From Octopus vulgaris (Eukaryota): a DNA stretch of 64,000 bases. The position numbers were made by a program, and so were the translations under genes. The DNA lies in NCBI GenBank assembly GCA_951406725.2, contig OX597817.1:115382001-115446000 (forward strand), written 5' to 3'. Position 1 is the first letter of the stretch; each line of letters opens with the position of its first letter. Positions 13,884-63,155 of the stretch are shown in pieces. The notes beneath the pieces were generated by a model. It ran no database searches. It worked only from the letters and a program-made list of their open reading frames with translations, and was not told the DNA's origin.

Positions 13884-14387
13884 TACACTCTCTCATGAAA
13901 AGTGTAGAAGTGGCTAATCTCTATCTAAATTTTAAAAAGAAACGCCTCTTAGACGGTCAGTCAGTACATCAGCTATAAAACTCAAGTGTACCTCACATTA
14001 AAATACGGTTCACAGATCTGACGTGTGAATGACAATTTCAACAAGACCGTTTTAATTATACACAACGTATATAAAATTAATACAAGAATTTACCTGCGTT
14101 GCCCTTTGGCTTTCGGCATATCTAAACTACCAATATGAAAACCCTCTTTACCAAATTTCCCTCCATTCATTTTCATATGTCCCTTCTGTCATATGAATTG
14201 TGGCTCCTGTCCAGAACCGTTCTTTTGTAAACTGAGGTTACATATATTATCTAAAATGATAGACTTCTGCAATTTACATTCCTTATGATATTTTACCTCT
14301 TGGCATTGGCGAGAAATTGTTAACTTAACAAGGATTGGCATCAAGCCATAATTTGTTAGGAGATCTAGTAAGAATGTATGCATGTTT

Positions 14388-14418
<31 letters not shown>

Positions 14419-14455
14419 CGTATATACGTATATACACACACATATATATATATAC

Positions 14456-14486
<31 letters not shown>

Positions 14487-14490
14487 AATA

Positions 14491-14523
<33 letters not shown>

Positions 14524-14524
14524 T

Positions 14525-14577
<53 letters not shown>

Positions 14578-15072
14578 GAATTGATATTTAGAAAGCACAA
14601 AGTGTGGCAGGTAACGCTAAGTAAGTGCTATTCTAAACATACACATCTCGCCTCCCCACCATCTATCCACAAATACTACCGATACATTCTCAAATTTTCC
14701 TTCACACCACAAGACACTTTCGAATGAGCAACACAGAATACAGGGCTCCATATTTTATATAAACATGAACTACTATTGGAACTTACATACCATGTACAGG
14801 GAACGTTTTACCACTTCTATACATCACATTCCTCGAATAATGGAACTACAACTATAATATCTTTCTATATCTTATATTTTTACTTTCATTGACTTATTTC
14901 CCTCTGTATTACTTATCTCCTCGTTTTCCCAAATAATTCCTCATTTCGAGCTCAAATATTTACCTCTATTTAACCATCTCACATCATCACTGATGAAAGG
15001 ATATCCATAATATCCTAGAAACAGGATAGAGTGTATATATACACTCTCTCATGAAAAGTGTAGAAGTGGCTA
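13884..15072 (+). mobile_element. Non-coding element bounded by an exact 33-bp direct repeat, with a hammerhead-like motif near its 3' end
   Basis: TACACTCTCTCATGAAAAGTGTAGAAGTGGCTA occurs at 13884-13916 and 15040-15072; CTGATGA-stem-GAAAC at 14990-15022; internal TA tract 14390-14573. Confidence 0.55.
14983..15024 (+). ncRNA. Hammerhead ribozyme motif, 3'-disrupted
   Basis: CTGATGA-a-AGGATAT-ccata-ATATCCT-a-GAAAC-ag. Stem III and the cleavage triplet are replaced by a 20-bp palindrome at 15028-15047. Confidence 0.65.
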
Positions 15073-15459
15073 TATATATAGGAGAGGAAACATTATAAAA
15101 AGCAGAATGCTACATGGAAAATTTTTAAAAATTATAAAGGGGAAAAGAAATTTGTTTTTTAAATTGAGAAAGGGGAAAAAAGAAATTTACAATATATTTT
15201 TCAAAAAAATAATAATAAACATATACAAAAATTAAAAAATAAGTATACCGCTACATTCTTTATGTTTGTTTAGTTCAATAATTGTCCTTGGAAAAATTTC
15301 TTTGGAGGATTAAGATCCATGTGATTAAACGTAGTGCTTAGATAAAAGTGTTTCGTAAAAGAGTGTCAAAACAGGAAATGGGGTAGGAGCTATCCTGTTC
15401 CTGTGAGTAAAGGGAGACAACTCTGTGGATGTTATGCTCTTCAATGGGGATGATGGACT

Positions 15460-16280
15460 CTTTGTCAAACAGGATGCTTATATTAATTTTTTGACGGATA
15501 GGATGTTAGAAAAAAGAGTATGGTCATCGTGGAGTTTGCATATTAAGATGCGTTTGGAATTTTTCAAAAAAAGATTCTCTTTGTTGATTCTTTCTCGTGT
15601 AGTGATTTCGTCTTTATATTGGTAGAAGGGGAATATGTGAAATTTAGGATTTTTGTCTCTAGCGCACGAGCTATGTGACTACATAGTGGAATTTGACGGT
15701 ATTCTGGGATACTTTTCTGTTCGTTATGGACCGCTACTCTTCTACGTAAAGGAAGGCTCGTTTGTCCAACATAATTGTGTTGGGAACCGGCGCATGTGAG
15801 AACGTAGATGAGGTTCTCAGAGGAACAGGAGAAGTTGGTCTTGATTTTAAACTTCGTTCCTTGTTTGAAAGTAAATTCAGAACCTTCAAGTAGGAAGGGG
15901 CAGGTACCACAATTAAGGCGTGCACATTTTTAACTGATAGGGATGGATGTGGTGTGTGAAGTTTGGCATTTGTCAAGAGTTTTTCAAAGATTTATGTTGC
16001 CTTTTACATTTGAGGATTTTATGTGTATTGATAATATTATTTATTTTGGGTCTGTGGACAGTAAGGGGAGGTTTTGTATGGTCGTGGTGTATGCTTCGAT
16101 ATTTTGGGGGTTGTGGGTGTAAATGTATGGGAGTATTTTGTTGCTGTGTTGGGTAGTTTTCAGAGTATTATTGTCTAGTCTTTGGCACGATTTATTCCAT
16201 ACTCTATGAGAGTGGAGGGATATTGGCGTTATAATAGTGTTTTTTCGAGGTCTTGAAGGCGTATTGATATTTAGTCAACT
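15460..16280 (-). pseudogene. Penelope-like element (Neptune-like) fragment: Cys-rich linker + GIY-YIG endonuclease, frameshifted
   Basis: The minus strand reads CARLNCGTCPFLLEGSEFTFKQGTKFKIKTNFSCSSENLIYVLTCAGSQHNYVGQTSLPLRRR, clearly homologous to the ORF at 33521-34348. Confidence 0.85.
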
Positions 16281-60082: not shown

Positions 60083-61519
60083 AGATAAGAAAATGGAGAA
60101 ATACATCTAAATCAAATATCAATTACACGATAATACTCAATCACATACTTTGTTAAACCACCACATAAGAGACTGTAGGGTTACATATAAAAAGCAGAAC
60201 AAATCAGTGTACATAAAGGAATGTACATAAAAAAGTGTACATAAAAGAGTAATAATGTATAATAAGTAGAATATATATAAACGAGAATATAAATATAAGT
60301 AAATATAAATATAAGTATAGATTACATCTTACAGCTGTTTCGGCCATGTAGATAAGTATTCTCACTTTACCAATATTAGCCTTTTATGGTAGGTCAATAT
60401 ATAGAGACATTTACAAAAATATCATAAGGCCTCTTCGGAGATTATGATATTTAAATCAGTCTACATATATATCCACATGGGTGTGGGTACATACCCATAA
60501 TACAACATATACATATACATATGAGTGCATATACTCACACTCCTATACATATAAAAATATACATATACATAATGATATAAATAAATAATATAAATTAATA
60601 AACATATATATGTTCCACATTCAACGTCTCAGTTTTTCGACTTAATATTGTGATAATAAACATACACATATTAGTACCTAGATGCAAATATACATAGGCA
60701 ATAGTACATTATATTACTTCATACTAATTTCTAAAGTGTCATTGAAGTTAGCATCATTATCGTTGTCAATACAATAAATATTACTATTATTATCATTCAT
60801 AATATTATTAATAACGCTTACATTAGGATCCAGATTGGCAAATAAGTATGTCCTGGTTCCAGTTAGTAATTTTCCTTATGACATAAATACACTATTGGAT
60901 TTGAATTTAAAATTATCATTATCTTCCCCATGGTTGGTCCATTGTGAACCGCCCGACCTCTACCACACCGCACAAGCAAAACATACACATCCAAATCTAA
61001 CCCTAAACCCACACATGCACACAGAAACTCACACACACACATGCACACACACATGAATACACCCCTACACATCGCCACACTTTCACTGAAATGCAGAGTG
61101 CATGTCTGTCATCGCATGGCTTATAGACAAATCAGTACAGGCAGCAGTGTCTAACACTAACACACATACTCACACGCACATCCGCATATACATATATACA
61201 TATCCAAATATGCACCTGCGTGCTCTTGTGTGTAATAAAAACATACATCCGTACATCCACCCACGATCATACCTATATGTACAAAAACATACATACGTCC
61301 ATATACACATTTTCACACACCCCGACACCTCAACTCACATCTTCTAAATCTTAAATTAAAATATATGTCTGCCCATCCAAAGACGTATATATACATACAC
61401 AAAAAGTAAACAGAAGTTACTATTAATTAGATATAAGTTCATTAATTATAAATTAAATTAATTATAGATTAGTAAGTGCCAGATAAACAAATTTAAATAA
61501 TTAAATAAATAAATATAAA

Positions 61520-61565
<46 letters not shown>

Positions 61566-61716
61566 GCTAAAGTATTACTGGTAGAAGAATTAGATGTTAT
61601 TTAAATCTAGAGAAAGTGTACGCCAATATGTGGTGGCTTAATAACGTATGTGATTGAGTATTATCGTGTAATTGCTTTTTGATTTAGATGTATTTCTCTA
61701 TTTTCTTATCTTGTAT
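60080..61716. mobile_element. ~1.6-kb non-coding segment with ~90-bp inverted ends and an internal hammerhead
   Basis: TACAAGATAAGAAAATGGAGAAATACATCTAAATCAAA...CCACCACATA (60080-60168) is the reverse complement of 61627-61716. A TA tract lies on the left; HHR at 60326-60442. Confidence 0.7.
60326..60442 (-). ncRNA. Type I hammerhead with a large loop 2 and a U4C change
   Basis: Minus strand: ATCT CCGAAGA GGCC [~85 nt] GGCC GAAAC AGCT GTA AGAT. Palindromic stem III ACAGCTGT. Confidence 0.7.
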
Positions 61717-61911
61717 TAGTAATTTGTGGTAAATCACTTTACCTTTGCCCATATAATACAGTAAATGAATCGATTGCATCGCAATCATTAACATTTATGT
61801 ATTAACTTTGTTGGGTACTTCAGTAGCAGTATATTGGATATATGTTATCCCGTGGAGGGTTGCATTTACAACCCCTATCTCAATTTATATATATATATAT
61901 ATATATATATA

Positions 61912-62050
61912 CACTGAGGCCTCGATATATGAATTAATACGCTTCCGGAGAACGCTCGTAAAGCGAAAACAAGTAAACAGAAAATAAAATTCCTAACAGC
62001 TCGTAACCCGGCATTTCGTAAAGCGGCTCTTCGTAAAGTGAGTAATCCAG
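61912..62050. mobile_element. Possible pogo/Tigger-type MITE
   Basis: TA-CACTGAGGCCTCGATATATGAA ... TTCGTAAAGTGAGTAATCCAG-TA; only weak terminal inverted similarity. Confidence 0.4.
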
Positions 62051-62120
62051 TAATCTATATAAGCCTGACAGTGGCCCGCGAAACTTTGAGTCACATGGAG
62101 CTGAATGGAGCTGTTTTGAG

Positions 62121-62181
<61 letters not shown>

Positions 62182-62444
62182 TTACTTGGAAATGGATAGG
62201 TCTCTTTCAATTACATAGTAAATAAAATATAATATAACATGTATATATAATATTGAATAAAAGTTTCAAAAAAGTTCTATTTTTAATTAGTATCAATAGT
62301 GAAGATTATTATCAATAACCACATTATAATTAATTCATAACTATAAGCCCATAATGTGGTTATTGACATTTAAAAGTATATTCTCGGCATATTTGGCATA
62401 GAAAATTTTTTTCTTTCGCCCTTATTTATGAGTTGTTTATATAT

Positions 62445-62615
62445 ATATCTGTAATATAACATGTGACAATTATTTGGTTTCCATAATAAAACTCCGACTT
62501 TCGGATGTCGGGCGGAAACCTGGACCGGAATCTCTTCAGGTTTCCACCCCGACATCCGAAACTCGGAAGTATTATTATGGCAACCGAATAATTGTCACAG
62601 ATTGTATTACATATA
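62445..62615. repeat. ~80-bp-arm hairpin; each arm contains the 3' half of a hammerhead
   Basis: TGTGACAATTATTTGGTTTCCATAATAA..TTTCGGATGTCGGGCGGAAACCTG pairs with CAGGTTTCCACCCCGACATCCGAAA..TTATTATGGCAACCGAATAATTGTCACA. The right arm reads GAAAC-TCGGAA-GTA. Confidence 0.88.
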
Positions 62616-62821
62616 AATTCCTATGTTTACATAATATCGAGGTTTCTTTCATTATTTTGTAATCTTACCGTTACTATTAATAATACATTGTATATATATA
62701 TATATTCTTTACAGATTTAGAGTAAAAATTATTAATTTAATAAACTAACCAATTTTACCAAGTAGTTTTCGGCATGGAAAAGAATCATATTCGGTAAAAA
62801 CTTATATAAAAAGTTTTTTTT

Positions 62822-63155
62822 CATATATAATTATAGCAATAATTAAGGGTTTAGCAACAAGTTGCTTGACCATATACCGAAAATTTTAGAAATAGCAGCC
62901 AAAAGACTGCTATTTATTTTTTTTACAAAATATGTCTTCACAGATAACAATATTTGTAACGCACATAGGCAAAAAGAAGACTGCTTGATTTCATTATTTT
63001 TCTTCTTTTTGCCCATGTGAGTTACAAATATTGTTATCTGGGAAGACATATTTTGTAGAAAAAAGAAATAACTGTCTTTTGGCTGCTATTTCTAAAATCT
63101 TCGGTATGTGGTCAATCAACTTGTTGCTAAACCCTTAATTATTGTTATAAATATA
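62822..63155. repeat. Near-perfect fold-back with ~155-bp arms and a ~20-bp spacer
   Basis: AATAATTAAGGGTTTAGCAACAAGTTG...GGCAAAAAGAAGA versus TCTTCTTTTTGCC...CAACTTGTTGCTAAACCCTTAATTATT; TA-rich ends. Confidence 0.93.

Follow-up and report, generated by a model that had tools for sequence, protein, structure and literature searches.

Hammerhead motifs in a 64-kb stretch of the Octopus vulgaris genome as probable truncated tails of Penelope-like elements

Hammerhead motifs of the window

A 64-kb stretch of the Octopus vulgaris genome (C4:115382001-115446000, contig OX597817.1; hereafter the window) carries a series of motifs resembling the type-I hammerhead ribozyme (HHR), a dozen of which had been listed in an initial annotation. 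Each listed site was tested via its copies across the genome (2.8 Gb, 227 contigs), with the best 40 of 174-2384 candidates scored per genome search. Ten of the 12 sites were members of nine genome-wide repeat families (A to I) with a type-I HHR, and at all 10 the copies across the genome keep both the core and the paired stems. The other two, at 41122 and 40690, were rejected and are described below. Our study suggests that the confirmed sites are likely the 5′-truncated tail ends, or pseudo-long terminal repeats (pLTRs), of coding Penelope-like elements (PLEs) whose own enzymes inserted them into TA microsatellites, because six of the HHR families continue upstream, in longer copies, into a gene for a reverse transcriptase (RT) with a GIY-YIG endonuclease (EN).

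The positions first noted for the 10 confirmed sites lie at, or a few bases off, the stem-I edges of real motifs. A strict CUGANGA/GAAA descriptor gave one match in the window (32160), against a mean of 0.06 in 100 local dinucleotide shuffles. Under a relaxed descriptor, which permits one core change, the U3-A8 pair and one additional base, four sites were found against 0.44 +/- 0.62, and 0/100 shuffles yielded four; a looser descriptor gave seven matches, two of them outside the listed sites, against 2.18, with 2/100 shuffles yielding seven. The motifs thus exceed the dinucleotide-shuffled background under all three descriptors, which is the control that the initial annotation had proposed, although the relaxed and looser descriptors were composed after the motifs had been seen and the enrichment is somewhat flattered as a result.

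Several of our results would suit an explanation by chance matches in AT-rich repeats. The strict descriptor was passed by one of the 12 sites, two sites were rejected, the predicted folds of several window copies do not surpass those of shuffled sequence, and an Rfam scan of the window returned no hammerhead at gathering score, the sole hammerhead match being HH9 at 32818-32882 (E=3.8) among output that consisted mostly of microsatellite matches to miRNA models. Against chance stand the enrichment over shuffles, the compensatory U3-A8 pair fixed in 25/25 copies of family B, and the existence of nine families with different stems, the same topology and the same place near the 3′ end. At the family level chance is refuted by the genome-wide copies with core and stems, and we regard it as having next to no probability. 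The description of the stems as mostly unrelated and the topology as shared was accurate; masked self-BLAST likewise found the window HHR sites mostly without mutual relationship, and a repeat search of the window was dominated by microsatellites, the exception being an inverted repeat at 32005-32584. Stem III is palindromic or near-palindromic in all nine families. We take the motifs to be minimal type-I hammerheads of PLE type from several unrelated lineages, as had been proposed.

Families and the genes upstream of them

The HHR first placed in the 3′ end of a Neptune-like PLE flanked by (TA)n is indeed the window copy of family B, a 5′-truncated element at 32781..34443 (-) with (TA)n on both sides. 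Its open reading frame (ORF) remnant at 33521-34441 holds an RT thumb, a CxxC linker and GIY-YIG, and its HHR (32834-32871) has the U3-A8 core and a stem III of ACCGGT. The family core is UUGAAAA in every copy, a 3′ extension of ~35 nt is present, and ORF homology was found in 24/25 loci with a query that favoured long copies. A longer copy (L100) encodes a stretch of 377 aa in which YLDD, a CxxC linker and a Pfam GIY-YIG match (E=5.8e-5) are found.

Family A is represented by two copies joined head to head in an inverted repeat. The first, the 3′ end of a 5′-truncated PLE at 31994..32319 (-), ends at (TG)n(TA)n and bears an intact HHR at 32160-32239 with core CUGAGGA and a long stem II; the second, at 32311..32700 (+), has its HHR at 32347-32429, shows a damaged stem II and terminates at the (TA)n tract 32701-32781. 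Across the family the core is CUGAAGA in 22/30 copies. The palindromic stem III ACGCGCGT noted at the outset is present in the window copy, but it is a variant and does not typify the family, most copies of which have ACACGTGT. In three loci (L154, L156, L163) ORF and HHR occur together, with the ORF stop ~1.4 kb upstream of the core; an upstream walk found an EN match at or beside the query in 15/20 loci, and RT-like motifs were seen in L166 and L168. An internal piece of the family A 3′ untranslated region, without HHR, also lies at 16263-16485 (+) and ends at a (TA)n tract at 16494.

Family C is a PLE 3′ end at 41180..41609 (-), accompanied by a partial inverted copy at 41659-41751. Its HHR (41362-41401) has the core CUGAUGC plus an additional G, as do 21/22 copies of the family. 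In L117 the end of ORF P0002 precedes the core by ~550 nt, and ORF matches were found in 9/22 loci. The window copy of family D, a 5′-truncated PLE at 60081..61632 (-), retains the last codons of the ORF (61564-61632) and an HHR at 60326-60442 with a U4C core and stem III ACAGCTGT; an inverted copy begins at 61627. The family core is CCGAAGA in 21/22 copies. In L114 it lies 1.9 kb downstream of the stop of ORF P0001, and L113 and the window copy itself likewise show the link to the ORF.

Family E is a short PLE 3′ end at 57983..58345 (-) with a decayed HHR (58173-58291), whose stem II region forms a long hairpin (fold z = -4.55) that is unusually large for minimal hammerheads. Its core is CUGAGGA in 11/16 copies, and an EN ORF remnant lies upstream, running into the HHR region, in one of 16 loci (L124). 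In family F, a PLE 3′ end at 14630..15041 (+), other sequence stands in place of the 3′ strand of stem I in the window copy of the HHR (14987-15024); the family core by alignment is CUGAUGA. After upstream walks an EN ORF was found upstream in 11/16 loci, and EN and HHR share a single locus in L214, L217, L219 and L226. Two further observations were made beside this copy. An exact direct repeat of 32-33 nt occurs at 13885-13916 and 15040-15072, 1.15 kb apart, its second copy sitting right at the truncation point of the family F HHR; it represents either a copied tail or a target duplication of exceptional length. A second Neptune-like PLE fragment (15041-16139, (-)) adjoins the family F copy in tail-to-tail orientation; it is 40% identical to family B, has a Pfam GIY-YIG match (E=3e-5) and shows no clear HHR in its 3′ part.

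The remaining families are seen in the window as short or rearranged copies. Family G, a short decayed copy at 16738..16930 (+) with an approximate 3′ limit, has its HHR at 16809-16841; the commonest core is CCGACGA (9/30, with 8 copies unparsed), with an additional A and a stem III of ACGT. Family H, a short decayed copy at 46780..46994 (+), has its HHR at 46878-46911 and a commonest core of CUGUCGA (7/20), that is A6U, plus an additional A. Family I, whose window site spans 62485-62573, is a palindrome at 62443..62680, a fusion of two truncated HHR-bearing ends head to head, with a core at 62485-62543 (-); other copies of the family have the full CUGAAGA motif and a 5-bp stem I. The PLE ORF link of families H and I runs via sister subfamilies: in 15/24 loci that of H, ~76% identical, is preceded by a Neptune-like ORF, and a sister copy of I follows a GIY-YIG ORF in one locus (L107).

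In families A to F the longer copies therefore continue upstream into a PLE ORF with GIY-YIG-type EN motifs, and RT motifs were seen upstream for A, B, C and F. The EN alignment shares CxxC or CxC, a YIG/YVG motif and a downstream R and E. Pfam named GIY-YIG in the family B and L107 proteins, and the Atlas look-alikes of P0001 and P0002 included clusters in which 37% and 13% of the members carry GIY-YIG; the Atlas neighbours were mollusc-dominated. From motif resemblance we take B and H to be Neptune-like and A, D, E, F and I to be Nematis-like, with C unplaced.

Other features of the window were recorded in passing. The site at 41122 was rejected as a hammerhead; it has a hairpin and GAAA, but CUGANGA is absent in the window and in three other copies. 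It belongs to the 3′ end of a long interspersed nuclear element (LINE) of the AP endonuclease-RT (APE-RT) type at 41106..41155 (-), which has a hairpin and a short terminal repeat and adjoins (TG)n(TA)n, and in L105 this element lies downstream of an ORF end matching an APE-RT LINE protein. The site at 40690 was rejected as well, its core being absent in the window and in two other copies. At 1313-4068 (+) lies an almost full LINE, presumably RTE-like, whose AP endonuclease and RT (Pfam Exo_endo_phos and RVT_1) are separated by a single frameshift. A PLE fragment at 21795-22615 (-), presumably Penelope/Poseidon-like, has an RT end with YVDD followed by a GIY-YIG-like part without the CxxC linker. 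A long inverted repeat was seen by eye at 62840-63140, with arms near 62840-62910 and 63075-63140.

Ends of the copies and the weighing of explanations

The genome holds at least nine HHR-bearing families, most of them tied to PLE genes, in TA tracts. Ends and arrangement were counted in seven families (A to F and H) and 151 loci. The 3′ end lay within 15 nt of a microsatellite in 118/151 loci, and at (TA)n in 100/151, against a random-position background of 6.4% and 12.1%, which bears out the proposed association with (TA)n/(TG)n tracts; the first 5′ break fell at a microsatellite in 49/151. Adjacency alone cannot separate targeting from tracts grown after insertion. Each family has one or two fixed 3′ ends (two discrete ones in B, C, D and E). 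In A, C, D and F the 5′ ends are scattered across hundreds of bases, and those of B are variable as well. Two HHRs on the same strand were found in 2/151 loci and an inverted HHR in 23/151, counts that miss partial copies covering <60% of the query.

These arrangements bear on the proposal that the sites are independent, non-autonomous, retrozyme-like families, that is, non-LTR retrozymes consisting of tandem non-coding HHR repeats that form circular RNA and use PLE proteins. The type-I HHRs and their co-occurrence with PLEs are in keeping with it, and retrozymes are derived from pLTRs in the available text of bioRxiv 10.64898/2026.07.22.740005. However, Tandem Repeats Finder (TRF) found no HHR-bearing tandem array in the window, same-strand pairs are nearly absent among the 151 loci, the HHRs are minimal rather than canonical, and families A to F are contiguous with an ORF. 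With six of nine families contiguous with a PLE ORF and two more linked via sister subfamilies, the copies are largely what the initial annotation had itself named as speaking against independence, namely truncated ends of coding PLEs, with G untraced to an ORF. For these loci, no search for arrays elsewhere in the genome having been made, the retrozyme explanation is already largely refuted, and we consider it highly improbable. The accompanying suggestion that PLE RT and GIY-YIG proteins are used fared better, these being the likely mobiliser.

The interpretation as truncated PLE tails is based on the contiguity of HHR and ORF, on 3′ ends that are fixed and lie at microsatellites, on 5′ ends that vary in A, B, C, D and F, and on an arrangement in which head-to-head inverted copies are frequent and tandem arrays nearly absent. 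Features of EN-containing (EN+) PLEs are present, namely a single upstream ORF with RT followed by a GIY-YIG EN, a minimal type-I HHR near the 3′ end, and 5′ truncation with inverted truncated copies and an optional 3′ tail. By analogy with published PLE biology, the GIY-YIG nuclease would nick (TA)n; the RT would then prime, at the target, on a fixed tail ~50-420 nt past the hammerhead and would usually stop early, and a template jump or self-priming could produce the inverted copy. All copies span the predicted cleavage site, where the template RNA had therefore likely either escaped cleavage or been re-ligated. From the palindromic stem III, cleavage is expected only in a tandem transcript (two HHRs in one RNA), and solo genomic copies are accordingly predicted to be silent fossils.

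A number of our results weigh against this interpretation. None of 30 family G loci was linked to an ORF, upstream walk included, and none of 20 loci of the window's own family H subfamily had an ORF upstream. Pfam did not name the proteins of families C, D and A, homolog searches with the family A RT piece gave no match at E<=0.001, and a PDB sequence search gave no match; the A, C and D proteins are assigned to PLEs by their motifs, by tblastn chains and by Atlas look-alikes. The longest pieces recovered were 5′-truncated, none being a full-length element with two pLTRs, and the family counts reflect the best-scoring candidates of each search. The 5′ ends of E and G, furthermore, are clustered rather than spread, falling -40 to -81 from the core in 14/15 copies of E and 27/29 of G, and one alignment column sets the two long E copies apart from all 14 short ones.

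The clustering raises the alternative that E, G and perhaps H also spread as short solo-pLTR units resembling short interspersed nuclear elements (SINEs), with an internal promoter 60-80 nt upstream of the HHR and a short RNA copied by PLE proteins in trans into TA tracts. The pile-up contrasts with the spread ends of A, C, D and F, and in E it was seen with a query that reached only -34. In both G and E, motifs that we take to be initiator (Inr)-like lie near the upper edge of the pile-up. According to the parts of PMC2377424 and PMC3846280 available to us, pLTRs contain an internal promoter or Inr, and the latter reports in-trans mobilisation by pLTRs. On the other hand, the edges of the pile-up are ragged across 20-40 nt, and the query for G, which started at -69, was partly biased against shorter copies. 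Short and long copies are equal in mean identity (0.90 vs 0.89 in E, 0.82 vs 0.82 in G), and the E and G trees are star-like, with long and short copies intermixed and no short-only clade. An ordinary tandem transcript, if primed on its 5′ pLTR, would also produce the same pile-up without any independent element. We therefore consider spread as solo-pLTR units to be unlikely, if worth keeping in view.

Core variants, known systems and significance

The HHR core is canonical in A, E, F and I and has the compensatory U3-A8 pair in B, while fixed deviations occur in D and G (U4C), C (A9C) and H (A6U). Median copy identity ranges from 81 to 99% between families, which indicates very different ages, with family C copies 99% identical; within families, the copies mostly show neutral decay. 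Stem II carries inserts of ~50-90 nt in A, D and E. In families F and I (L137-L151; L143, L221) the 3′ strand of stem II also seems to carry an additional base, immediately ahead of GAAA, which either accompanies or replaces the known extra base after A9. The U3-A8 core is described as active, and A6C and U4C as slow, in the available portion of PMC3088659.

The system itself is known; what is new is the set of HHR-bearing PLE families, which are observed here by way of their truncated tails. As far as the accessible text of Cervera and de la Pena 2014 (PMC4209133) goes, many minimal HHR families occur per genome, mostly single or on opposite strands and probably truncated PLEs; the low activity of dimers was already reported there, as were the U3-A8 core and the extra base after A9. 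The window families resemble the EN+ PLE pLTR hammerheads of that report in being many and unrelated, in occurring singly or as opposite-strand pairs 100-700 bp apart, in their palindromic stem III, extra base after A9 and U3-A8 variant, and in having few copies in full elements. Unlike those described in that text, families A, D and E have the stem II inserts, and fixed A9C or A6U cores were not seen there, although these variants may already be in print.

A bias to (TA)n, inverted truncated copies, a 30-40 bp tail and clade motifs are described in what was available of Craig et al. 2021 (PMC8557442), where the function of the HHR in EN+ PLEs is called unclear. Our elements are similar to the C-terminal EN+ clades treated there (Neptune, Nematis and Hydra) in their RT, Cys-rich linker, GIY-YIG and (TA)n insertion bias, in their inverted 5′-truncated copies, and in the optional tail, to which the ~35 nt of family B corresponds; the clade labels used here are provisional and come from motif resemblance. 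Excerpts of PMC3846280 describe Inr motifs in pLTRs, solo pLTRs and in-trans mobilisation, those of PMC2377424 map the internal promoter of Penelope, and dimer cleavage is reviewed in PMC6765202, likewise consulted in part. Animal non-LTR retrozymes, defined by tandem units in the available parts of PMC7229834 and bioRxiv 10.64898/2026.07.22.740005, share with the window families a type-I HHR, a non-coding local context and pLTR ancestry; they are defined by circular RNA and by tandem repeats of 150-450 bp units, and such arrays are nearly absent in the families here. The same preprint states, in its accessible text, that most PLE insertions are 5′-truncated with one terminal repeat. For Octopus vulgaris, 31 recently active Penelope-like families have been reported, and the main text of that report, in the portion available, makes no mention of hammerheads (PMC13282606). 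A literature search for hammerhead ribozymes in octopus returned no title on the subject among the matches listed, and one on truncated, non-autonomous SINE-like forms returned no paper.

In summary, the finding as it stands is an annotation result. A bolder joint explanation, which we rate as doubtful, is that E and G are mainly solo-pLTR, SINE-like units of 200-350 nt, their 5′ end being the pLTR transcription start and their parent PLE mobilising them in trans, and that very young families with a broken-looking core, such as A9C in the nearly identical copies of family C, show cleavage to be weak or dispensable for PLE spread. Families E and G, with their clustered 5′ ends, could represent a stage intermediate between truncated PLEs and true retrozymes. 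Recently active families supply a panel of natural, fixed core variants (U3-A8, U4C and A9C) for testing whether PLEs need cleavage.

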